From: Pseudomonadota bacterium
Lineage (GTDB): Bacteria; Myxococcota; JACRCW01; JAFGSX01
Reading direction: 5' to 3'
Length of the DNA stretch: 64,000 nt
Assembly: GCA_043821645.1 (NCBI GenBank)
Contig: JBDRCO010000101.1
Coordinates: forward strand, 1 to 64,000
The notes below the pieces were generated by a model that was not told the DNA's origin, made no database searches, and worked only from the letters and a program-made list of their open reading frames with translations. Both the position numbers and the translations under genes were made by a program. Numbering within the stretch: the first letter of the stretch is position 1; each line of letters begins with the position of its first letter. Shown piece by piece: positions 2,235-20,033 of this stretch.

Positions 2235-3218
2235 TCAGGGCAGGGGCACGCTGCTCGAGCCAAGCGGGCAGTAATTGATCTCGCGCGGCTGCATGGGCTG
2301 GCAGCTGCGGCTGCCGCAGGTGGCGCCGCTGCAGGTGTCGGCGTCACAACTCTGGGGAGCTGTGCAGTCCCCGGCGCTGTAGCAGGTCGTGCCACTGGAC
2401 GAGCACACGTTGCTGCAGTCACTTGCGTCCTGGCAATAACCGCCGCCCTGGCCGCACTGGCCCACGCAGTCTCCGTCGTCCTGGCAGGCCGAGCCGTCGC
2501 CACAGGCACCGAGCCCGCACTCGCTGGACTCGCACTGCACATCGGCGCTGCAGGTCTGGCCTGCTCCCAGCCGCGCTTTGCAGGTGCCGTCACAGATCAG
2601 GTTCTCGGCGCACTCGTACGACGAGTTGCAGGCGGTGCCCGAACCCTTGAGCGAGGCGCACTGGCCGCCATCACAGAACAGGCCGCTGGCACAGCCGAGG
2701 CTTCCGCACGACTCTCCCTTCTTGGCCAGTGCCTTGCATTTTGCCTCGATACACACTGTGTCGACGGCGCATTCGAAATCCCAGAAGCACTCCTCGCCCG
2801 AGCCCTGGGCGCCCTCGAAGGGGCTGTCCGAGCAGGGCTCGGCCATGGGCGATTCCTCGGCCACGATCACGCACTTGCCATCCTTGGGGCGCGAGGCGTC
2901 AAAGCAGGCCGCGGCCGTCTCCTTGTTGAAGGTGCTGCGCCCCTCGGACACCGAGTAAATAGGCTCGGCGTAGTAGCTGCGGCACAGCAGTTCCATGTCT
3001 TGCTTGCAGCGTCCCTCGTCGTTGACATTGTCCTCGGCCAGCAGGGACTCGCGCTGCCGGCTCGAGCAGCACTGGATCATGTTGGCGCACATGAGGCTGG
3101 CCCATTCGGAGCAATAGCTGTCCGCCGACCCGAACAGGCCGAAGCAGCCACTCGAGCCAAGGCTCGCCAGCAGCGCGATGACGAGACCGGGTCGAGCCAG
3201 AGATACTCGTTGGTGCAT
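2235..3218 (-). CDS. Cys-rich secreted lipoprotein (Dickkopf/EGF-like Cys repeats)
   Basis: Start re-assigned to ATG 3218 after AAGGGGGG; lipobox-like LGSSGC; dense GxxC-xxxxxC repeats. Confidence 0.75.
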   Translation of the reverse strand: MHQRVSLARPGLVIALLASLGSSGCFGLFGSADSYCSEWASLMCANMIQCCSSRQRESLLAEDNVNDEGRCKQDMELLCRSYYAEPIYSVSEGRSTFNKETAAACFDASRPKDGKCVIVAEESPMAEPCSDSPFEGAQGSGEECFWDFECAVDTVCIEAKCKALAKKGESCGSLGCASGLFCDGGQCASLKGSGTACNSSYECAENLICDGTCKARLGAGQTCSADVQCESSECGLGACGDGSACQDDGDCVGQCGQGGGYCQDASDCSNVCSSSGTTCYSAGDCTAPQSCDADTCSGATCGSRSCQPMQPREINYCPLGSSSVPLP

Positions 3219-3506
3219 CACACCCCCCTTGACGTGAATGGCGAGAAGTTCGCTCTGGGCGGGGAGCAGACCACGGGGCCGCACCTGGGGGCAAGGTCGT
3301 GTGCTGTTGTCAGCGAGATCTCAGAAAACCGATGATCTGCGGTGTGGACGACTCACATCCTGTGGGTTCAAGGGGGCGCAAATCGTGCAGCATCTAGGTG
3401 GGCGTCCTCCCGAACTCTGTGATAAAAAGAAAAGGGTCAGCAATCACGGGAAGATCGCGGCTGTACCCGCGGTCCGGAGCCAACTACGGTCGGTGATCAT
3501 CACGAA

Positions 3507-3529
3507 TGGCCAGAGCTATGCAAGTGCCA
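3507..3529. promoter_or_regulatory. Two overlapping, oppositely oriented sigma54-like -24/-12 elements
   Basis: Plus strand 3507-3522 TGGCCAGAGCTATGCA; minus strand 3529-3514 TGGCACTTGCATAGCT. Both have GG-N10-GC spacing and lie between divergent genes. Confidence 0.4.
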
Positions 3530-3630
3530 CTCGCGAGGTCCTGTCCAGAGCTCTGGCCGAGGCAAAGCTGCCATGCTGGCGAGACGGCTGAACAGGGCAG
3601 GCCCCAGGGCCGAGTCCGTGGTGAGGAACA

Positions 3631-4758
3631 ATGCGCAAGATCCTTGAAAAGGTCGGTTTCACACCCCGCATCTGCGTCTGGGAGCTAACCCTCGCCTGCA
3701 ACATGCAGTGCGGTCACTGTGGATCTCGCGCAGGCAAGGCACGCCCCGACGAGCTGAGCTCCGAGGAGGTCCAGCGCGTGGCCAACGAGCTGGCGGACCT
3801 GGGATGCAAGCGCGTCACCCTGAGCGGCGGCGAACCCATCCTGCGCAAGGACTGGCCCGAGATCGCGCGCACCCTGACCGGGCGCGGGGTCAAGGTCAAC
3901 ATGGTGTCCAACGGCTGGGCCTGGACCCCCGAGACCGTGCGCACGGCCAAGGAGGTCGGGCTCGCCAACGTGTGCTTCAGCATCGACGGCCTCGAGGCGA
4001 CCCACGACGCCATCCGCAAGCCGGGCTCCTATGCCCGGGCCATGAAGGCCTTCGAGTACTGTCGCGAGCTCAAGCTGCCCACGGCCTCGATCATGACCAT
4101 CAACCGCCGCAACCTCGGCGAGATCGACGCCGTGCACGACATGCTGGTCGAGATGGGCGTCACCCTGTGGCAGCCGCAGCTGTCCGACCCCATGGGCAAC
4201 CAGCGCGACAACATCGAGTGGGCCTTTCACCCCGAGGAGCTGCCCGAGATCGAAGACAAGCTGGGCGAGATCATGCGGCGCTCGTCCATGCGCGTCACCG
4301 TGGGCGACAACATCGGTTTCTATGGCCCCAACGAGGAGCTGTTCCGCCAGGAGTCGACCTTTGGCTTCTGGGTCGGCTGCTTCGCCGGTTGCCAGGTGGT
4401 CGGCATCGAGGCCGATGGCAACATCAAGGGCTGCCTGTCGCAGCAAGACCCGGCCTTTGTCGAGGGGAATGTGCGCACCGAGTCGCTGGCGGACATCTGG
4501 TGCAGGCCCGGCGCCTTTGCCTTTAACCGCGAGTTCACCACCGAGCAGCTCGGCGGCTTTTGTGCCGAGTGCCGCTACAACGACATCTGCCGCGGTGGCT
4601 GCACCTGCTCGGCGCACTTCGCCTCGGGCAACAAGTTTGACAATCCGTTCTGTGTGTATCGCGTCAATGAACTTAAAAAGCGCGGAATTGTTGAAAAAAT
4701 TGGTACAGAGCGGGATATCGACGTGGAAAAGCTGCCCATCCAGCCGATCGCTCGATAG
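3631..4758 (+). CDS. Radical SAM/SPASM peptide maturase, PlpX (splicease)-like
   Basis: WELTLACNMQCGHCGSRAG (CxxxCxxC), SGGEP, SIDGLEATHD, WQPQL, GDNIGFYGP; SPASM cysteines GCFAG..GIEADGNIKGC, CAEC-x5-CRGGC, NPFC; GAGGA RBS; directly upstream of small YG-rich peptides. Confidence 0.9.
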   Translation: MRKILEKVGFTPRICVWELTLACNMQCGHCGSRAGKARPDELSSEEVQRVANELADLGCKRVTLSGGEPILRKDWPEIARTLTGRGVKVNMVSNGWAWTPETVRTAKEVGLANVCFSIDGLEATHDAIRKPGSYARAMKAFEYCRELKLPTASIMTINRRNLGEIDAVHDMLVEMGVTLWQPQLSDPMGNQRDNIEWAFHPEELPEIEDKLGEIMRRSSMRVTVGDNIGFYGPNEELFRQESTFGFWVGCFAGCQVVGIEADGNIKGCLSQQDPAFVEGNVRTESLADIWCRPGAFAFNREFTTEQLGGFCAECRYNDICRGGCTCSAHFASGNKFDNPFCVYRVNELKKRGIVEKIGTERDIDVEKLPIQPIAR

Positions 4759-4806
4759 GGAGCGGATCGCCCCTGGGGGGTGTACAATGAGTGAGCGGAG
4801 GAAGCC

Positions 4807-4989
4807 ATGACAGAGCGAGAGATGCGGACCAAGATCGACAGCGTGCTCCGGGATCTCGAAGTGCAAGAGCTCGAGGAGCGCATCGCACCCGTCAAGTGCG
4901 ACAAGAACCCCGACGCGCCCGAGTGTGCCCCCGTGGCGCGCTACGGTGTGGTCGAGGACCCTGTGGTGCGCTACGGCATCGGATTCTAG
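4807..4989 (+). CDS. RiPP precursor peptide A1 (60 aa; 2 x RYG)
   Basis: MTEREMRTKIDSVLRDLEVQELEERIAPVKCDKNPDAPECAPVARYGVVEDPVVRYGIGF; GGAGG RBS; paralog of the next two ORFs. Confidence 0.9.
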   Translation: MTEREMRTKIDSVLRDLEVQELEERIAPVKCDKNPDAPECAPVARYGVVEDPVVRYGIGF

Positions 4990-5011
4990 ACGCGATTCGC
5001 AGGAGGCTGAC

Positions 5012-5206
5012 GTGGACGACAGCAAGATGCGCGACAAGGTCGATCAGGTGCTCAGGGACCTCGAGGTGCAGGCGCTCGAGGAGCGCATCGCACCGGTCAA
5101 GTGCGACAAGAATCCCGAGGCCCCGGAGTGCGGCATCGTGGCCGAGTACGGTGTGGCCCTGTACGGCATTCAGCCGGACTATGGCATCGATCCGGGTGGT
5201 GGTTGA
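5012..5206 (+). CDS. RiPP precursor peptide A2 (64 aa; EYG, LYG, DYG)
   Basis: GTG start at 5012 after AGGAGG (5001-5006): MDDSKMRDKVDQVLRDLEVQALEERIAPVKCDKNPEAPECGIVAEYGVALYGIQPDYGIDPGGG. Confidence 0.9.
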   Translation: MDDSKMRDKVDQVLRDLEVQALEERIAPVKCDKNPEAPECGIVAEYGVALYGIQPDYGIDPGGG

Positions 5207-5235
5207 GCGACGCCACGGTAGTGAGGGAGGCTCTC

Positions 5236-5430
5236 ATGAATGATCGCAGCATGCGCGATCGCATCGACCACGTGCTGGCGACCCTCGAGGTGCAAGCGCT
5301 CGAAGAACGCATCGCACCGGTCAAGTGTGACAAGAACCCCGAGGCGGCCGAGTGCCAGGTGCAGCCCATGTACGGCGTCACCATGTACGGCATCGAGCCC
5401 ATGTATGGCGTCGACCCGGGCGGCGGCTGA
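5236..5430 (+). CDS. RiPP precursor peptide A3 (64 aa; 3 x MYG)
   Basis: ATG at 5236 after GGGAGG (5225-5230): MNDRSMRDRIDHVLATLEVQALEERIAPVKCDKNPEAAECQVQPMYGVTMYGIEPMYGVDPGGG. Confidence 0.9.
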   Translation: MNDRSMRDRIDHVLATLEVQALEERIAPVKCDKNPEAAECQVQPMYGVTMYGIEPMYGVDPGGG

Positions 5431-5446
5431 GCGCTGAACCCCGACC

Positions 5447-6658
5447 TTGAACCCTCCCGTTGCTGAGCCCGGGCCCGCGCCCGCGCGGCCACACCTTCGA
5501 ACCGATCTGCAGCTCGCTCCCGCGGTCGAACGCGGTGAGCCGTGCACCTACGTGCGCGATCCCGTGCGCCGGAGCTTCTACAGGTTGGGGGACACGGCGC
5601 TGCGCGCGGTGCAGCTGATGGACGGTGAACACGACGCCCGCAGCATCGCCGCCGAGGTCTCGGCCGAGCTCCACGTCGACATCCCGGTGGCGTCCATCGA
5701 GAAGCTCATCACCACCCTCGACGGGCATGGCTTCCTCTCCAATGGATCACCACCTGCGCCTGCTTCCCGCGTGCGTGGTGGGGTGTTCTTCCTCGTCATC
5801 CCGCTCATCGATCCCGATCGCTGGTTGCAGATCCTGGCTCCGCTGTGGCGCGTGCTGGTGTCGCGCCCGGTGGCCGTCGTCATCGGCGTGCTCATCACGG
5901 CGGGCGCGCTGTTGCACCTGCCGTGGCTGGGAGGGGCGCACACCTGGACCGGCGGCACGCTTGGGATGCGCGACCTGGTGGCCTTTTACCTGGTGGTCTC
6001 CGCCGCCATCGTGCTGCACGAACTCGGTCACGCGGTCACGCTCAAGGCCATGGGCGGCGAGGTCCACGAGATGGGCCTGCTGCTGCTGTACCTGCAACCC
6101 TGCTTCTACTGCAACGTGAGCGACGCCTACCTGCTGCCGCGCCGGCGCCGACTGTGGGTCTCCTTCGCCGGTCTCTACGTCGAGCTCGGGGCCTGGGGCG
6201 CGGCCTCGCTGGTGGCCCAGGCCCTGGGACCGGACCATGCCGCGGGGCGGGTGGCGCACCTGGTGACGACGGTGATCGGGCTCAAGGCGCTGCTGTTCAA
6301 CCTCAACCCGCTGATCAAGCTCGACGGCTACTACCTGCTGGTCGACCTGGTACAGATCCCCAACCTGCGCCAGCGCGCCTTTTCCCACCTGGCCCGGACC
6401 CTCGGCCTGCGCCGCGGTGACGACGGGCCCACCCCCCGGGACACGAGGGAGAAGGGCATCCTCCTGGCCTACGCGAGCCTGGCGCTGCTGTTCCTGGTGG
6501 GGCTGTTCGGGGTGCTGGCGCAGCGCCTGTGGCGGGTGCTGCAGGACGGGGAGTGGACCGTCTCGGTGCTGTTCCTTGCAATCATCTGCGCTTTCTTGCT
6601 GCTGCGCGGGTTGCGTTTCGCGTTCGGTCTGCGCCGCGCCGGGTCCGCGCAGGTCTGA
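5447..6658 (+). CDS. PqqD/RRE domain fused to site-2 (M50) membrane metalloprotease
   Basis: N-terminal LRTDL..YVRDPVRRSFYRLGDTALRAVQLMDGEHDARSIAAEV..LDGHGFL has the PqqD/RRE pattern; HELGH zinc motif; NLNPLIKLDGY motif; several TM helices. Start codon (TTG) uncertain. Confidence 0.85.
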   Translation: MNPPVAEPGPAPARPHLRTDLQLAPAVERGEPCTYVRDPVRRSFYRLGDTALRAVQLMDGEHDARSIAAEVSAELHVDIPVASIEKLITTLDGHGFLSNGSPPAPASRVRGGVFFLVIPLIDPDRWLQILAPLWRVLVSRPVAVVIGVLITAGALLHLPWLGGAHTWTGGTLGMRDLVAFYLVVSAAIVLHELGHAVTLKAMGGEVHEMGLLLLYLQPCFYCNVSDAYLLPRRRRLWVSFAGLYVELGAWGAASLVAQALGPDHAAGRVAHLVTTVIGLKALLFNLNPLIKLDGYYLLVDLVQIPNLRQRAFSHLARTLGLRRGDDGPTPRDTREKGILLAYASLALLFLVGLFGVLAQRLWRVLQDGEWTVSVLFLAIICAFLLLRGLRFAFGLRRAGSAQV

Positions 6659-6660
6659 AC

Positions 6661-7026
6661 TCAACCCCAGCGCCCCGCCGAGCTCGACGACGGCAGCCGC
6701 CCCAAGTCGCGATCCATGCGCCGGCTCAGCTTGTACCAGCGCTGCACCGAGTTCTCGAGCAGGGCATAGTGGAAGATGTATGGCACGAGCAGCGCGAGCA
6801 GCAGCACCAGCAGCACCAGGCTCCACAGCTGTGGCCGGGCCAGGTAGATGACGAAGGCCGCCAGGCTGAATACACCAAAGGCGAGCAGCACCAGCAGGTG
6901 GGCCAGGCGTTCCGCCTGAAGGTATCCCACTTGCCTCTCGTGATAGGCGCGAAAGCGACTCAGGGTGCCCGGCTCGGCCAGGGCCAGTTCCGCGGCGGTC
7001 TCGTGTTCGCGGATGAAGTGCTTCAT
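6661..7026 (-). CDS. Small membrane protein (2 TM), hypothetical
   Basis: MKHFIREHE..QAERLAHLLVLLAF..PYIFHYALLENSVQRWY; start re-assigned to ATG 7026. Confidence 0.7.
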   Translation of the reverse strand: MKHFIREHETAAELALAEPGTLSRFRAYHERQVGYLQAERLAHLLVLLAFGVFSLAAFVIYLARPQLWSLVLLVLLLALLVPYIFHYALLENSVQRWYKLSRRMDRDLGRLPSSSSAGRWG

Positions 7027-7161
7027 GGCGGGCTCCGGGGCGCGTCGGTGCGTTGCCCTGGAGCACAGCACGGACAGCGCCTGGCGAGAAGCCCGACGCC
7101 GCGACAGCGTGGACCGGAGAGCGCGCGGGGGGTATGGTCCACGCCGTCCCCGGGAGCGTGC

Positions 7162-7941
7162 ATGGACCTCGCCGTCGAGAACTACTGCAACGATATATGG
7201 CCTCTGGTCTACGAGCCCTACTACGCCGAGGACCACGCCAGGGAGTTCCCCTTTTACAGCGCCGTCGCCGCCGAGCGCCCGGGTCCGGTGCTCGAGGTGG
7301 GAAGCGGTACCGGCGTCCTGTTCTACAAGCTGCTGCGTGGCGGTGTCGACGTGCAGGGCATCGATGTGTCGCCCACCATGCTCGACGCGCTGTACCGGGC
7401 GGCGCGCGACGATGACGAACGTGTACAGGCGCTGCAGCGGGTGCGAATGCAGGACATGACCGCGCTCGATCTGGAGACCCGCTTCTCGCAGATCTTGGTG
7501 CCGGCCCGGGCCTTTTTACACGTCGCCGCGCTGGAGGCACAGCTGGCGACCCTGCGCGGCTTTCATGCCCAGCTCGCCGAGGGTGGCCGCCTCGCCCTCA
7601 ACTTCTTCGTGCCCGACCTGCAGCAGATCCTGGACGCGCATCGCAGCCCGCAGGAAGAACCCTTCGACGCCTTCGTGCATCCGCGCAGCGGCGCACCCAT
7701 CGAGCTGACCATCCGTCGCGAGGTGCCGGACCTGAGCGCGCAGCGGTTCATCGTGACCTGGCGTTTCAGGTGGGAGGACCAGGAGCGCGTCACCCGCATG
7801 GATCTGCGCTGGGTTCACCGTGACGAGTTCGAGCTGATGCTCCGGCTGGCTGGGTTCCGGTGCTGGAAACTGTTCGGCGAGAACGATCGCTCCGGGTTCG
7901 GGCCGCACAGCAACGAGATGTTCTGGCTCGTCGAGAAGTAG
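7162..7941 (+). CDS. Class I SAM-dependent methyltransferase
   Basis: VLEVGSGTG, GIDVSPTML, QDMTALDL, LAEGGRLAL; start re-assigned to ATG 7162. Confidence 0.9.
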   Translation: MDLAVENYCNDIWPLVYEPYYAEDHAREFPFYSAVAAERPGPVLEVGSGTGVLFYKLLRGGVDVQGIDVSPTMLDALYRAARDDDERVQALQRVRMQDMTALDLETRFSQILVPARAFLHVAALEAQLATLRGFHAQLAEGGRLALNFFVPDLQQILDAHRSPQEEPFDAFVHPRSGAPIELTIRREVPDLSAQRFIVTWRFRWEDQERVTRMDLRWVHRDEFELMLRLAGFRCWKLFGENDRSGFGPHSNEMFWLVEK

Positions 7942-8006
7942 CCAGGGCTCGCGCCCGCGACGGGTTGTGTGATAGCACTGGGTCGCCACCGTGGAGGACA
8001 CGACGC

Positions 8007-8906
8007 ATGATGCGTGCGCCGCTCGCCAGTGCGCTGCTGCTGATGCTTCTGGGCTGCCCGACCTCCCGGCCACAGGCAGCAGCGGAGCCAGCCCAGGCAC
8101 CCGCTCTGCCCCAATCATCGCCAGGCCTTCCGGCCTCGCTCACCACCGCCCATGATCTGCCGCCGATCGCGGTCACCGAGAGCTCGACGGCCTATGACCG
8201 CGCCGCCATGGCCTTGCCGGGTTTCGACGGGTCGCGCCAGGACCACTGGGTGGTCCGGGGGGACCAGCTGTGCCGTGGCGATCGGCCTCGCCAGGTCATC
8301 GTCGACGTGGATCAGACCGCGGTCAGCGGTAACTTCGTCGCCAAGGTCGAGGTCAACCCCGCGGCGCGCGAGGTCCTGCGCACGCTCGATCAGGCTCACG
8401 GTGTGACCTACCTCAGCGCCAACTTTGCCATCGACCGCATCGTGGCCTTTTTGGATCGCACGGGCTATCCGCAGGTGCCTGCGATCGCACGCCCTCGCAA
8501 CTACTGGAAGCCCGACTACGGCAGCTGGTGCAAGCAGGGCGCCCGCTACGAGCTGTGCGAGAGTTCGTACAAGCTCGACGCCATCGAGCGCATGGTGCAG
8601 CGCTGCCCCCAGCGTGACGTGCCCCTGATCGGCCTGGGGGACAAGTTCAGTGACTATCTCGCCTACGCTCAGGCCGGAGTCTGCCCCTTGATCGTGCGCG
8701 ATGGACACGTTTTGGAGACCAATGCGAGCGAAATGGCCGCAGGTTGCACGCTCGATCCAGACCGACGCTTTGCCTGGATGCCCGACGACAGGGGCCTGGG
8801 TGATCGCTGTGCCGTGGTGCCGGATCGCTTCGTGGTTGGGTGGGATCAGATCGAGGCACGCGCCGAGGCCGTGCTGAGCGGGTCCGTGGCCTGCGGTGCC
8901 TGGTAA
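8007..8906 (+). CDS. Lipoprotein with HAD-superfamily phosphatase domain
   Basis: Lipobox LLGC; HAD motifs DVDQT, YLSA, YK, GDKFSD; GGAGG RBS. Confidence 0.7.
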   Translation: MMRAPLASALLLMLLGCPTSRPQAAAEPAQAPALPQSSPGLPASLTTAHDLPPIAVTESSTAYDRAAMALPGFDGSRQDHWVVRGDQLCRGDRPRQVIVDVDQTAVSGNFVAKVEVNPAAREVLRTLDQAHGVTYLSANFAIDRIVAFLDRTGYPQVPAIARPRNYWKPDYGSWCKQGARYELCESSYKLDAIERMVQRCPQRDVPLIGLGDKFSDYLAYAQAGVCPLIVRDGHVLETNASEMAAGCTLDPDRRFAWMPDDRGLGDRCAVVPDRFVVGWDQIEARAEAVLSGSVACGAW

Positions 8907-8916
8907 GGAGTTTTCG

Positions 8917-9921
8917 ATGCATGAATCCATGACGCGTCCCACGCTCGTCCTTGGTGCCCTCACGGCGCTGTCCTGTGCCATGACCTCGTGCGCCAGCGAC
9001 AAGGCGGCCAAGGTCGAACCCACGGCCGCCGCTCCGGCGGTCGCGCTGTCGCCGGCCGATCAGGAAGAGCGGGCGCGCCTGCAGAAGGTCTTCCAGAGCA
9101 TCTTCGATGTGCCGGCCGACGCCACCATCGCGCCGGAACTGCTCGAGCCCAAGACCCTGGCCGATGCTCAGAACATCGTGCGCAGTGACAACGTGTCGCT
9201 GTTCCCCCGGGCCGACGCCGTGTTCACGGCGCATCTCGCCCAGAAGCCAGACGACCTGGACAACCTGACCTGGCATGCCCAGCTGTACCTGGCCTGGGCC
9301 GATTCCACCGCCCTGACCGGCAAGACCCTGAGCACCAGCCTGCAGAAGCTAGGTGGCCAGCGTGACGAGCTGAAGCAGAAGCTCGACGCGGGAGAGCTGG
9401 AGGGGGCGGCCAAGCTCAAGGCCCGGGCCCGGCTCGACGAGATCGACTGGCTGCTGCCGCTCGTCGAGGAGGTGCAGGGCCGGCTGCAACAGGTCGCGCG
9501 CGAAAAGATCGCCATCGGCGAGACCAAGACCCAGGCCATCCTGGCCAGGCACGGTGACAGCTACAAGGGCTTCCGCCTCGGCGCGGACCTGGCGCGCATC
9601 AGCGAGGACTGGGACCGTTATTCCGAGCGCGTGCAGAAGCTCGAGCAAAGGAACCCGGACTCCAACGGGCTGCGCTTCCTCAAGGGTGTGGTGGCCTTCT
9701 CGCGGGACAAGGACTACGCCGAGGCCGTGCGTTTCTTGCAGGAGGCCATCGCCAAGGATCCGAAGTTCACCAAGGCGCAGTACTACCTGGCCCTGACCTA
9801 CCTCAACCAGCGCAAGTTCGACGACGCCGTGCAGGCCCTGGATCGCACCCTCGAGCTGAGCCCGGGTCACCCCTTCGCCAACGCGGTGCGCAGCTACATC
9901 ACCCGCGCCCGGGGATACTGA
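8917..9921 (+). CDS. Tetratricopeptide-repeat lipoprotein
   Basis: Lipobox-like MTSC; C-terminal TPRs (YAEAVRFLQEAIAKDPKFTKAQYYLALTY..ALELSPGH); AAGGAG RBS. Confidence 0.85.
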   Translation: MHESMTRPTLVLGALTALSCAMTSCASDKAAKVEPTAAAPAVALSPADQEERARLQKVFQSIFDVPADATIAPELLEPKTLADAQNIVRSDNVSLFPRADAVFTAHLAQKPDDLDNLTWHAQLYLAWADSTALTGKTLSTSLQKLGGQRDELKQKLDAGELEGAAKLKARARLDEIDWLLPLVEEVQGRLQQVAREKIAIGETKTQAILARHGDSYKGFRLGADLARISEDWDRYSERVQKLEQRNPDSNGLRFLKGVVAFSRDKDYAEAVRFLQEAIAKDPKFTKAQYYLALTYLNQRKFDDAVQALDRTLELSPGHPFANAVRSYITRARGY

Positions 9922-12291
9922 GACCGGGCGCCCTGCGTCGCAGTGCGAGCCCCAGCAGCAGGGCGCCGCCCCACAGCAGACCAGAACGCGATGTCACGGT
10001 GAGGCCGCTGCACAGGCCCACCTGGTGTGATCCGCCCAGACTGCCGTCGCCATAGTTGGACCCACGGCGGCGACAGTCCTCGTCGACCCGGCCATCGCAG
10101 TTGTTGTCCACGTCGTCGCGGCACAATTCCTCGACATCGGGGCGGATCTCGGCATTGCCGTCGTCACAGTCCCGCTCCTGGCAGAAGCCGTCGCCGTCGC
10201 CGTCGACGCAGCTCTGGCAGCCGTCGTCGACACTGCCGTTGCAGTCGTTGTCGAGGTCATCGCCGCACTTCTCGGCGTTGCTCGGGTAGACGCTGCTGCG
10301 GCTGTCGTCGCAGTCAACGGGTGCGCAGAAACCATCGCCATCCGCGTCGGTGCAGGCGTCGCAGCCTTCATCCGTCTGGCCGTTGCAGTTGTTGTCGACC
10401 TCGTCGCCGCAGCGCTCGAGGACTCCGGGGTGCACACCGGGATGGTTGTCGTCACAGTCCACGGCCTCGCAAAAGCCGTCGTGGTCGCGGTCCACGCAGG
10501 TGTCGCAGTCCTCGTCGGTCCGGCCGTCGCAGTTGTTGTCCCTGCCGTCGCCGCACAGCTCGCTGGCGCCCGGGTGGTCGCTGGCGTTCTGGTCATTGCA
10601 GTCCTGAGCCTGGCAGCTGCCGTCGCCATCGGCGTCGATGCACAGACACACCCCCACGCCGTCGAGACCCTGGAACACCGGCGCGTCGCAGGCCTCGTCG
10701 CTACCGCAGTCGGTGTTGCCCAGGCAGAAGGGGACGCAGCGGCCGGTGGTCGCGCCGCTGGCTCCAGCGCACATCAGGCCGTCGGCGCACTCGAGCAGAT
10801 CCCCGAGCTCGACATTGCAGGCCGCGCCCTCGGCGATGCCGTGACTGGCGTAGCAGCTGGTGGCACCGGTGCGCGTCGGATAGCAGCCCAGGCCGCCGGA
10901 GCAGCCTCCGCCACGCAGGTCACAGTTGTCGGGGGGAAAGCACACGTCGATGGCACCCGCGCAGCTGCTGTACACGCAGTCGAGCCAGGCCGTGTCGTCG
11001 GTGATGGTGTCGCACGAGGTCGAAAAACAACCGTTCATGGTGTCGAGCTGGTCCTGGGCCGTGACCGTGCCGCGTCCGTAGCAGGCGGCGGTGCAGGCGC
11101 TGTCCCCCGACGTGCAGTCGACCATGCAGGTGTAGATCTGCTCGCAGCTCTCGCTCCCGCTGGCCTGTGGAAAGCACGCGCTCTTCTGGGCCCCGCACGA
11201 GCTGTCCGCGCAGGTCCAGTACGCGTCATCGCTGAGCCCCGCGCAGTTCTCATCGAGGCAGGCGAGCAGTGTGTTGAGCTGCGAACGCGCATTCTCGGTG
11301 CCCTGCAGGTAGCAGTTGCTCTGGCAACCCTGGTCGCTGCCGCAATCGCCCATGCAGCTGTAGATCTCGTCGCAGCTCAGGGTCTCGCACAGGGCGTTGC
11401 TGCAGGTGCCATTGCTCTGGCAGGCCTGGGCGCAGGTGCAGACCGACGGCGAGGTGAGGCAGTTTGGCGGTGCCACGCCCATCTGCTGCGCGATCCACGT
11501 CGAGTAGTGGTCGACGCGCATGTGGTTGTAGACACCCATGCAGGGATCGCCACCGCTGGAGCCAACTGTCGAGTTGACCCCGATGACGCGATAGCCATCC
11601 GCGAACTGGTACAGTCCTGGCCCGCCCGAGTCGCCAAAGCAGATCCCCGAGCCGCTGTATTCACCGCTGTAGGTGGCGCTGTCCACCCAGGACACTGCCA
11701 CGGTGGCCGAGCGCTTGATGCCGCCGCCTGTGCGGTTGATGCCCTCGGTGACCCCGAAGCCCACGTAGAGGACACTGCCATCGACGAAGGCACCGTCCAT
11801 GGTGGTGGTGTTGTAAGGGTAGGTCGGGACGCCGACGGCGGGCTGAGACAGATGGACCAGGCCCACGTCGTTCTCGATGGTGCTGCTGTTCCACTGCGGG
11901 TGGACGTAGAAGGCGTCGGTGGGCAGGAAGGTCCCTGTCGACGGGCGCTGTGCCGAGGCCGTGGGATTGGCGTCGCTGCCCACGAAGAAGCGCACCATGC
12001 TCGGGGTGAGCGCGAGGTCCTCGCTGGTATCCAGGCAATGGGCTGCGGTCAGGACCCATTGCGGGGCGATCAGGGTGCCGGTGCAAAAAGAACCCTGGTA
12101 GCCGTAGCCCGGAACCTCGTAGGTCAAGGCACCCACGCCGAGCCAGCCACTCTCGCTGACGCCGCCCACGATGGCTTCACGCTGCGAACCCGCACGGGAG
12201 TCCAGGTCGCCTGGGGACAGGCGGTGGCGAGCACGGCCACGATCCAGGTTGCGGTCAGGCACATCTGCCATCGAGTCGCGCTGCGTGTCAT
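9899..12291 (-). CDS. Trypsin-like (S1) serine protease lipoprotein with Cys-rich and DxDGDG repeats and C-terminal MYXO-CTERM-like anchor; apparent frameshift near 12213-12216
   Basis: AIVGG, LTAAHC, ENDVGL, CFGDSGGP. Signal peptide MTRSATRWQMCLTATWIVAVLATAC (ATG 12291, AGGGAG RBS) is in a different frame from the protease body. Ends C..hydrophobic..RRR. Confidence 0.85.
10073..10642 (-). repeat. Four 48-aa putative metal-binding repeats (CxDxDGDG..DCDD..HPG..E.CGD..DNNCxG..DE.C)
   Basis: Visible in the translation of the protease C-terminal region. Confidence 0.85.
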
Positions 12292-12871
12292 TCCGGTCTC
12301 CCTGTCGCTCATCTCTTGAGAGGACGCCGCCGTGCAGCTGCCGTCGCAGAGCCCGGCTGTGTGGCCGTAGAGGAATATCCGCAGGGGTGCTGATTGATCG
12401 AAAAAAGTCATTTATTTCATATAGATGTGACGAAGAACACATCTCGCAGGTCGCCTTTCGTGAGCGGGCGCACGTTGCGCTGCGTGGATGTGATCGACGG
12501 CACGCGAGATCTTGGGGCCTGTGCTGGAACCTCGATCCGCCCCGGGAGCTTTGGCGGATAGCGCGCAAATACCGCTCGCCGACGAGGGCGGGTTACTGCT
12601 TCAGGAACTCAGGCTGACCGCGTCCGGTGGCGTCGGACGTCGAGTCGGGCGCCGGTGCCACGCATCGAATAACCGTCGCTGGAAGTTGCCATGGTGCGGG
12701 GCTGCGACCTCGTATCCGGGGAGACGTCTCAAGAATGCAGCGGCAAGAACGTGTGCTGTGCGCGCGGTCACACCGCGGATGTGATGCAGCGCACCCTCGT
12801 CGAGAAAGCTCGGCGCGGACCGCCAACTCCAGGGGTCGCGAGATAAGCTGATCGACATGCGTCACCATGAA

Positions 12872-19052: not shown

Positions 19053-20033
19053 GTGTCCATGTCCATCCCTGAGGGTTTTCGATTCTACTCTCCTGACGAT
19101 GCGCTGGCCGAACGGGCGCGCTGGGCCCTGACTCGAATCTTCAAGCTCGCCGAAGTGGCCGCCGACGCGCTGCTCGAGGACCCGGCGCGGCGCATGCTGA
19201 TGCGGGTGGCTGACGACGGCACGCTGGCTGGCTTCATCGTGTTCAAGGACTACAAGAGCGTGCTGCTGTCACCCGACAATGCCTTCATTGCGCGTGACGA
19301 CAAGGACCTGCTGGCGACACCGGGTCTCAAGGTCTACTCCTTCGAGCAGGTCTGGTACCGCGACAACGACTTCGACATGGCCCGCATCCTGCGAGAGGTG
19401 CTGCCCGCCATGAGCACGATCCTGGACGGTGAGGCTGTGCGCTATGCCCTGCTGTGCCTGTTGCCCGACGGTCCGTCGAGCCAGGCGCTCGCTGACCTGC
19501 TGCTGGAGCAGGGCTTTCACATCAACCCCAACGTGTATTGCGATTATCGGTTCTCTCTCGGCCAGGTGCCGCAGGTCGCCGACGATGTCCCCGAGGCTCC
19601 TGTGGGCGTGGACCTGCGCAGCTTCGCTCATCCCCCCGACATGACGGCGCTGGTTACGACCTTCAACCGCGTGTTCGCCGGCGGAGCCGAGGCGCTGGAG
19701 CCCGCCCACGTGCAGGCCATGCTCGAGCTTCCAAGCTTCGCGCGGGACCTCAGCTTCTGGGTCGCGCGCGAGGGCAGGGTGGCCGGCTTCGTGTGGATGT
19801 TCTGGCAGGCACCAGGTGTGGCGAAGCTCAACCTCGTCGCCACGGATCCAGATTTTCGCGGTCAAGGCCTCGTGCTGTCATGCACGCCGGTGTTCATGCG
19901 CGCCTGCCAGCGCGCCGGGGTGCACTCCCTGAGCTTCACCATCCAGTCCGAGAACCGCGAGCCGCAGAAGATTGCGCGCAGTCTCGGTGCCGTGTTGACC
20001 CAGCGCCGCCAAACCTACATCCGCGCCAGGTAG
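19053..20033 (+). CDS. GNAT-family N-acetyltransferase
   Basis: C-terminal VATDPDFRGQGL motif A and N..P..I...LG motif B. Confidence 0.75.
   Translation: MSMSIPEGFRFYSPDDALAERARWALTRIFKLAEVAADALLEDPARRMLMRVADDGTLAGFIVFKDYKSVLLSPDNAFIARDDKDLLATPGLKVYSFEQVWYRDNDFDMARILREVLPAMSTILDGEAVRYALLCLLPDGPSSQALADLLLEQGFHINPNVYCDYRFSLGQVPQVADDVPEAPVGVDLRSFAHPPDMTALVTTFNRVFAGGAEALEPAHVQAMLELPSFARDLSFWVAREGRVAGFVWMFWQAPGVAKLNLVATDPDFRGQGLVLSCTPVFMRACQRAGVHSLSFTIQSENREPQKIARSLGAVLTQRRQTYIRAR

Follow-up and report, generated by a model that had tools for sequence, protein, structure and literature searches.

A compact operon for a radical SAM/SPASM enzyme, three tandem XYG precursors and a recognition-element-fused membrane protease from an uncultured myxobacterial lineage: a probable spliceotide cluster without a Y protein

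The DNA stretch examined in this study comprises positions 1 to 64,000 of contig JBDRCO010000101.1 (assembly GCA_043821645.1, a Pseudomonadota bacterium that GTDB places in the Myxococcota) and will be referred to as the window. Positions 4807 to 5430 of the window, together with their flanks, form a real, coherent and compact operon for peptides that are ribosomally synthesized and then post-translationally modified (RiPPs), consisting of a radical S-adenosylmethionine (SAM) enzyme with a SPASM domain, three tandem precursor genes (A1, A2 and A3), and a membrane metalloprotease fused to a RiPP recognition element (RRE). Judged from the sequences, the locus is probably a binary spliceotide cluster, one that lacks the accessory Y protein and whose enzyme would excise tyramine at X-Tyr-Gly (XYG) sites, leaving the peptides with alpha-keto-beta-amino acids. 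With its three parts, the operon takes up only about 3 kb and has the following features.

3631 to 4758, plus strand: radical SAM/SPASM maturase, putative splicease ("X" protein), 375 aa, with Pfam matches Radical_SAM, SPASM and Fer4_12
4807 to 4989, plus strand: precursor A1, 60 aa, ATG start; sites RYGV and RYGI; region after the second Cys at 4927 to 4986; GGAGG at 4797 to 4801
5012 to 5206, plus strand: precursor A2, 64 aa, GTG start; sites EYGV, LYGI and DYGI; region after the second Cys at 5132 to 5203; GGAGG at 5002 to 5006
5236 to 5430, plus strand: precursor A3, 64 aa, ATG start; sites MYGV, MYGI and MYGV; region after the second Cys at 5356 to 5427; GGAGG at 5226 to 5230
5366 to 5412, plus strand: three copies of CCATGTAYGGCRTC, encoding (P/T)MYG(V/I), a site duplicated inside A3
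5447 to 6658, plus strand: intramembrane HExxH (M50/site-2-type) metalloprotease with an N-terminal RRE (PqqD-like), putative leader peptidase, assigned from profile matches

The cores of A1, A2 and A3 are APVARYGVVEDPVVRYGIGF, GIVAEYGVALYGIQPDYGIDPGGG and QVQPMYGVTMYGIEPMYGVDPGGG, exactly as given in an earlier sequence-only reading of this DNA, and, as stated there, every Tyr residue of the three peptides is followed by Gly and then by Val or Ile (8 of 8, with 2, 3 and 3 sites per peptide). None of the leaders contains Tyr, and not one of 100,000 shuffles of each core reproduced a pattern with xYG[VI] at all Tyr residues. The translations also agree with that reading in the residue preceding Tyr (X), which is Arg at both sites of A1, Glu, Leu and Asp in A2, and Met at all three sites of A3, and in the spacing between Tyr residues, which is 5 and then 6 in A2 and likewise in A3. 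The internal duplication described for A3 is a 14-mer found at 5366, 5381 and 5399; the window has no other copy, and the number expected by chance, estimated from 100 shuffles, is 0. The same reading rightly pointed out that A2 and A3 are mis-started in the list of open reading frames (ORFs), where they appear as 4925..5206 (93 aa) and 5101..5430 (109 aa); the real starts are the GTG at 5012 and the ATG at 5236. Both are located 24 codons before the Arg of RIAP, a register shared by 18 of 21 precursors read from DNA, the three deviating genes all residing in one metagenomic locus (L007), where two of them start 28 codons before. GGAGG lies 5 nt upstream of the start codon in each of the three genes, and their G+C content at third codon positions (GC3; 0.83 to 0.85) is the same as that of the neighboring genes. 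The three peptides have the leader ...LEERIAPVKCDKNPxAxEC in common, end in Phe or Gly, and match no model in Pfam or NCBIfam, including those for daptide precursors, Nif11/NHLP and DUF1843.

A conserved leader followed by a variable core is a correct description of A1 to A3. Two finer points of the sequence-only reading call for adjustment. The middle site is indeed absent from A1, but to state only this is too simple, as both later sites of A2 and A3 are missing and the second site of A1 does not correspond to the third site of A2 and A3. In an alignment of relatives, 11 of 28 peptides possess a distinct module at the C terminus, (P)VVRYG[IV]G[FYL], to which the second A1 site aligns, and one relative (P0009) combines site 1, a PMYGV site and this module. 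A1 can therefore be regarded as a peptide in which another module replaces both later sites of A2 and A3. Similarly, the division into basic, acidic and hydrophobic variants suits A1 and A3, but A2 is mixed (Glu, Leu and Asp). That the backbone would be modified at the YG sites can soundly be inferred by analogy with known XYG tyramine spliceases.

The homologs of these peptides conserve YG. The family is small: 8 other proteins were found in a collection of 5.8 billion clusters, a single locus (L001, in a Deltaproteobacteria/Myxococcota metagenome-assembled genome) among 185,579 species genomes, and six true loci in metagenomes (L002 to L007). Three further metagenome matches (L008 to L010) were rejected as false, as they consist of a KNPDAPEC motif at the C terminus of a large unrelated protein. 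The family occurs in 2 of the 4 genomes of the class of the source genome, in which only A1 to A3 were found. Tandem arrays are usual, with 3 genes in the window, 5 in L001, 5 in L002, 2 in L003 and 3 in L007. When 28 distinct peptides were aligned, the block L-E-x-R-x-A-P-V-K-C-x-K-x-P-...-C was invariant, and all 28 retain the pair of Cys residues. Gly follows 61 of their 71 Tyr residues, no Tyr is found in a leader, and Val or Ile comes next at 58 of the 61 sites. The residue before YG varies (R15, M13, L10, E9, D8, A3, F1, P1, K1), and the distance from the second Cys to the first Tyr is exactly five residues in 24 of the 28 peptides. There are 1 to 4 YG sites per peptide, with the number of Cys residues steady at 2. 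A profile search of 1.84 billion representatives gave 17 matches, 14 of which were retrieved, and 13 are short peptides with the same leader plan. Among these more distant relatives, YG is present in 12 of 13 peptides and at 20 of 29 Tyr residues, followed by V, I, G, A, E or T, with Gly at 3 of the 20 sites. One match (P0147) was discarded as a KYGVPRI repeat protein without the leader, and three long proteins (P0142, P0144 and P0146) were set aside from the inspection. All ESM Atlas matches for A3 were below 0.9, and the motifs IAPVKC, KNPEAPEC and VVRYGIGF were absent from the full-text literature searched.

The arrangement of the genes is also conserved. In the window, the gaps between the radical SAM gene and A1, A1 and A2, A2 and A3, and A3 and the protease gene are 48, 22, 29 and 16 bp, which leaves no room for a separate Y gene. 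In the window, L001, L002, L003 and L004, the peptides are immediately preceded by an orthologous radical SAM gene (75 to 82% identity). The co-occurrence of peptides and enzyme, which the sequence-only reading had named, beside YG conservation, as a test of its claim, was thus found in 5 of 9 loci, and the other four have no adjacent enzyme gene; taken together, the two tests largely support the claim. In every contig that has this layout and extends to the upstream gene, the enzyme gene precedes the peptides. Protease orthologs (61 to 62% identity) directly follow the precursors in L001 to L003, and enzyme, precursors and protease are contiguous in 4 loci.

The enzyme, encoded by a single-copy gene in its own genome, carries the motif CxxxCxxC (C23/C27/C30) and the SPASM residues C311/C314/C320/C324, all invariant in 32 homologs. 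The window proteins were scanned against NCBIfam, with the 25 best of 76 matches listed. The top family of the enzyme is TIGR04103, "nif11-class peptide radical SAM maturase 3" (300.5 bits over the full length; cut-off, 725), followed by TIGR03913, "GDL motif peptide-associated maturase" (296 bits over the full length; cut-off, 591.75). Beyond these two, the best score drops to 155.8 bits, and SkfB, StsB and WgkB score 101, 90 and 113 bits. Seven homologs of the enzyme score likewise against TIGR04103 and TIGR03913. The enzyme is 41.3% identical to the product of a Nostoc sp. C057 plasmid gene (L048) annotated as TIGR04103, the neighbors of which are a Nif11 precursor ending in GG-RGSIALYGLPPELF and, at the position expected for Y, a gene of 71 aa. 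Its best relatives in the PDB are SkfB and PqqE; to our knowledge, no splicease structure has been solved. PMC11002830 places PlpX, the splicease of the Pleurocapsa system, in IPR026482.

Homologs of the enzyme at E <= 1e-70 are present in 91 of 401 genomes of the phylum, among which identity above 78% is limited to the source genome and the genome harboring L001 (G029), the next value being 46%. Relationships were estimated with a quick tree (41 rows of tblastn-aligned segments, with support from the Shimodaira-Hasegawa-like approximate likelihood ratio test [SH-aLRT] only; the careful search was unfinished), from which L017 and L018 were excluded as fewer than 250 residues were aligned. The clade of the window enzyme has 100% support and is sister to an Agathobacter row (L050) and L044 at 93% support, a join that is unsure in view of the long branches. 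Both sister rows adjoin ORFs with XYG, ending ...GPVMYGTGVRM in L050 and consisting of a KYGGP/IYGAP/IYGGP peptide in L044. The L050 ORF (2183 to 2395 of the Agathobacter rectalis plasmid NZ_CP143948.1) is unannotated, ends in ...KNLFGPVMYGTGVRM, and is directly upstream of a radical SAM gene whose product is 38.7% identical to that of the window, together with a major facilitator superfamily (MFS) transporter gene; this ORF and its enzyme are likely a spliceotide-type pair in a gut Firmicute. Neighbors of another kind were seen in L029, L038 and L040 (Myxococcota genomes G331, G255 and G252), where enzyme homologs (41 to 42% identity) adjoin proteins of about 150 aa with a membrane anchor at the C terminus and four xVYG[LAM]P sites, and thus YG-rich proteins rather than short peptides.

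A model of the enzyme in complex with A3, which carried three 4Fe-4S clusters and SAM as riding ligands, gave a median score of 0.61, compared with 0.02 for the best of 3 controls. Of 157 solved complexes, 116 attain the mark for this score, as do 2 of 215 mismatched pairs, a calibration that is only roughly valid here owing to the use of our own alignments and riding ligands. At least 82% of contacts are shared between the runs, with a predicted local distance difference test (pLDDT) value of at least 58 for the partner. In the model, precursor residues 3 to 18, an N-terminal helix, contact enzyme residues 231 to 246 and 315 to 319, and A3 residues 49 to 63, which include the second and third MYG sites, contact barrel residues 16, 63, 90 to 92, 115 and 181. 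Among the core contacts, G58 and V59 of the third site, MYGV, have the least error. The invariant leader block (residues 22 to 40) is outside the confident interface. The model thus supports binding of the precursor by the enzyme, with the leader helix and a YG site placed on it.

The third component, the protease, has daptide_HExxH (NF041824) as its best NCBIfam match (209 bits; cut-off, 300) and weak Pfam matches to Peptidase_M50 and PqqD. HELGH is located at residue 191, and hydrophobic segments begin at about residue 129. With a profile of 30 homologs, positions 8 to 91 matched PqqD (3g2b; E value, 0.0026) and the RRE of the lasso peptide protein TfuB1 (E value, 0.011), and the assignment of an RRE fold is based on these profile matches. 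The N terminus of the protease is the only RRE-like domain in the cluster. The protease family is widespread and is often fused to HlyD-like export domains.

Among the systems that have been described, the locus most resembles the binary spliceotides of Rheinheimera, RhaX/RhaA, RasX/RasA and RcsX/RcsA. According to PMC11414181 and PMC11626197, these systems also consist of a radical SAM/SPASM enzyme beside short XYG precursors without a Y gene, MYG, DYG and LYG are natural sites there, predictions show the enzyme docked by a helix of the N-terminal leader, and two Cys residues lie near the splice sites, with a core disulfide reported for RcsA and RasA. In spliceases generally, tyramine is excised at XYG and the natural X includes Met, Leu and Asp (PMC11414181, PMC11626197, PMC9811515, PMC10533398, PMC11002830); these sources also describe engineered splice tags derived from Plp cores, such as ...GYGVVFP and ...LYGLPI. 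A small RRE-like Y protein is required in the type I systems of cyanobacteria, and all other spliceotide types do without it; in RhaA the leader helix fills the Y site as an activator, and AlphaFold places XYG in the splicease active site (PMC11414181; also PMC11626197, PMC9811515, PMC10849128). The window differs from the binary systems, with RhaX compared by description only, in its leader family, for which Pfam and NCBIfam have no model, in having up to 3 to 4 sites per peptide and 2 to 5 tandem precursor genes with Arg and Glu as X, and in a conserved third gene, that of the RRE-fused intramembrane protease.

Three other known systems were considered and excluded. The type I systems PlpXY and PcpXY of Pleurocapsa, compared here through the Nostoc example, share the radical SAM superfamily and XYG followed by a hydrophobic residue, but they rely on Nif11/NHLP leaders with GG cleavage and an essential Y protein, neither of which is found in the window, and the window enzyme fails to reach the TIGR04103 cut-off and is placed by the quick tree outside the clade of the Nostoc example. 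The TIGR03913/DUF1843 system, exemplified by plasmid loci of Azospirillum (L049) and Aureibacter (L051), has an enzyme of 37 to 40% identity to ours and tandem small precursor genes upstream of it, but its peptides bear a GDL/GDI motif and one N-terminal site, whereas the sites in the window are C-terminal and repeated; it was excluded as our precursors have no Pfam match and the enzyme scores 296 bits against 591.75. In the DUF1843 peptides of both examples, an N-terminal Tyr is followed by Gly or Ala (PYGA, LYAA, MYAA, RPYGP), which suggests that the "GDL motif" family may act at Tyr-Gly/Ala too; nothing on the function of TIGR03913 was found in the literature searched. Daptides, in which a leader ending in ELExMEAP is removed by an RRE-fused site-2 protease (10.1101/2023.03.08.531785), share with the window the N-terminal fusion of an RRE to an intramembrane site-2-type protease (MpaP), with NF041824 as the best family, and our LEERIAP block resembles their leader motif, which directly precedes the core. 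However, the window precursors end in Phe or Gly instead of the invariant C-terminal Thr of daptides and match no daptide precursor model, the protease is below its cut-off, and, where daptide clusters encode MpaB/C/D/M enzymes, only the protease and a nonconserved methyltransferase (63.5 bits; see below) resemble daptide genes. Radical SAM is unmentioned in PMC12766979, and PMC12710340 contains nothing on RRE-M50 proteins together with spliceases.

A pathway can be proposed for the operon. Each precursor would dock on the radical SAM enzyme through its amphipathic N-terminal helix (about residues 3 to 18), which would take the role that the leader helix has in Y-less spliceases. The enzyme would remove a tyramine equivalent (C8H9NO, -135 Da) from each X-Tyr-Gly and rejoin the backbone, so that A1 would contain at most 2 ketoamides and A2 and A3 at most 3 each. 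The RRE of the protease would read the second, invariant leader block (LEERIAP...), and the leader would be cut off at the membrane, possibly after IAP; this position is suggested because the corresponding daptide motif directly precedes the core. We propose such a two-part leader, with the helix for the enzyme and, by analogy with daptides, the LEERIAP... block for the protease RRE, because the helix is in the confident interface of the model and residues 22 to 40 are outside it. The products may be protease-inhibitor-like peptides with ketoamide side chains set by X, namely Arg in A1, Glu, Leu and Asp in A2, and Met in A3; keto-amide links, if formed, can block proteases. A bolder and more tentative idea, which we would not expect to hold in full, is that the locus produces a "programmable" set of multi-warhead inhibitors, combining a Y-less splicease of a deep, uncurated lineage, a daptide-type protease and a two-part leader, with 2 to 3 ketoamides per peptide and three genes covering trypsin-like, acid-specific and hydrophobic-specific proteases.

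A number of observations weigh against the splicing reading. The enzyme stays below the curated cut-offs of both TIGR04103 and TIGR03913, the former being the family to which we take PlpX, the founding tyramine splicease, to belong, and a 24-row clade of the quick tree (100% support), to which the Nostoc TIGR04103 and the GDL TIGR03913 examples belong, does not include the window enzyme. Among 28 loci of distant enzyme homologs, a neighboring frame with at least 3 YG was present in only 4 (1.5-kb flanks); inspection by eye revealed plausible single or double XYG in L028, L031, L045 and L050 and a YA variant in L030, and no XYG peptides in 14 other loci. Ten of the 71 Tyr residues of the relatives are not in YG (YA three times, YS twice, YC, YD, YP and two C-terminal Tyr residues). 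The four loci without an adjacent enzyme gene (L005, L006, L007 and L061) are short contigs or have an ABC (ATP-binding cassette) transporter gene as neighbor: in L005 (1,057 bp) and L061 a divergent gene for an ABC transporter ATPase is upstream of the precursors, L006 (3,732 bp) has neither enzyme nor protease, and the contig of L007 (1,523 bp) is too short to judge adjacency. The docking model may owe its score to likeness to solved complexes of radical SAM enzymes with peptides. Finally, splicing as it has been described accounts neither for the near-invariant Val/Ile after YG nor for the invariant pair of Cys residues and the fixed distance between Cys and Tyr; these features could mark another chemistry.

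One such chemistry would be a cyclophane at Tyr-Gly-Val/Ile, with a triceptide-like C-C bond from the Tyr ring to the beta-carbon of Val or Ile, or a thioether formed by the invariant Cys residues. YG[V/I] formally fits the pattern aromatic-x-x, links of this kind are made by SPASM radical SAM enzymes, and the constancy of Val/Ile (58 of 61) and of the Cys pair (all 28 peptides), as well as the failure of the enzyme to reach a curated splicease cut-off, would be in agreement with it. We nevertheless consider this unlikely: the Gly that follows YG at 3 of 20 sites in the wider family offers no beta-carbon, the L044 neighbor carries YGGP and YGAP, the variation from 1 to 4 YG sites against a constant 2 Cys fits poorly with pairing of Cys and site, and sactipeptide and other cross-linking families (SkfB, StsB and WgkB) score far below TIGR04103 and TIGR03913. 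The triceptide (3-CyFE) enzyme family was not among the 25 best of 76 NCBIfam matches, and no search by name was made.

We regard it as much less probable still that the peptides are exported signals or bacteriocin-like peptides processed by the membrane protease only, with the enzyme serving another substrate and YG acting as a structural or receptor motif. Orphan precursors without an adjacent enzyme gene, twice beside the divergent ABC transporter ATPase gene, and the frequent HlyD-like export fusions of the widespread protease family point in this direction. However, enzyme, precursors and protease are contiguous in 4 loci and separated by 16 to 48 bp in the window, the source genome has one such enzyme and only three precursors, and the docking model passes against controls. 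Moreover, G029, the genome that carries the full cluster L001, also contains the orphan locus L061 on another contig, a coexistence that orphan precursors acting in trans might explain. As for the reading that the small ORFs are chance frames, spurious ORFs are indeed numerous in high-GC genomes; here the starts are in register, each with its GGAGG, GC3 is that of coding sequence nearby, the leader block is invariant in 28 distinct homologs, and the profile search returned further relatives, so that for practical purposes this reading is refuted. Tyramine splicing by a Y-less enzyme thus remains the explanation that we favor. The orphan precursors of L005 (782 to 985) and L061 (G029:C596), apart from the radical SAM cluster, have an additional pair of Cys residues in the core (...LYSVECTGSDCGVPLPTRYGIGF and ...LYGVPPECSGGACRYGVGF).

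If this assignment is correct, the cluster belongs to a known RiPP class, the spliceotides, and possibly represents a new type from an uncultured myxobacterial lineage. The class is well known, as a spliceotide rule has been present in antiSMASH since version 6 (PMC8262755) and splicease-type enzymes were counted in 189 genera in a 2022 survey, as cited by PMC10849128; our peptide family may already be listed in that survey. No relevant paper on spliceotides or spliceases in Myxococcota or myxobacteria was found in the literature searched. Through spliceotides, peptides encoded by genes acquire beta-amino acids as well as electrophilic ketoamides; the examples tested are inhibitors of serine and cysteine proteases, and protein engineering makes use of spliceases (PMC11626197, PMC10533398). 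A 2022 review describes the final products from native hosts as still unknown at that time (PMC9811515). The locus adds a lineage of enzymes that falls outside both curated families, a short leader that is new and belongs to a family without a model, tandem multisite substrates with Arg, Glu, Asp, Leu or Met before Tyr, and a conserved RRE-membrane protease partner that could supply leader removal. Arg- and Glu-derived alpha-keto-beta-amino acids are not among the natural residues named in the relevant passages of the papers cited above, which mention Met, Leu and Asp. As no new principle is involved, the value of the locus lies mainly in natural-product mining and enzyme toolkits.

A weak hint of expression comes from the metatranscriptomic library X6, four 151-nt contigs of which are identical to 3705 to 3855, 3840 to 3990, 4875 to 5025 and 5099 to 5249, covering parts of the radical SAM gene and the A1-A2 and A2-A3 junctions; DNA carry-over is possible. 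The sequencing runs X2 and X3 contained only fragments of the stretch. No Rfam family was found within 3000 to 8000 of the window, a scan for promoters and terminators gave nothing usable, and no aminotransferase or alcohol dehydrogenase partner was seen adjoining the cluster.

Downstream of the protease gene, one further feature was annotated.

7162 to 7941, plus strand: class I SAM methyltransferase, with a Pfam match to Methyltransf_25 and a weak match to daptide_MTase (63.5 bits; cut-off, 175)

Since this gene has no tblastn counterpart in L001 to L003, its membership in the cluster is doubtful, and we place it outside the core. The intervening small membrane ORF (6661 to 7026, minus strand) belongs to no family; like the methyltransferase gene, it has a coding-like GC3 and is not conserved after the protease gene in L001 to L003. 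In L001, the gene after the protease gene (8193 to 9317, ...MNIPSGFRFY...) has a look-alike in the window only at 19053, with about 12 kb of other genes between. The contig of L002 carries a second, different radical SAM gene (5109 to 6007; 34% identical) about 2 kb downstream of the protease gene. Finally, 9899 to 12568 of the window (minus strand), about 3 kb from the putative inhibitor cluster, encodes an 889-aa secreted protease of the trypsin family (S1) with four MopE-type Cys-rich metal-binding repeats.

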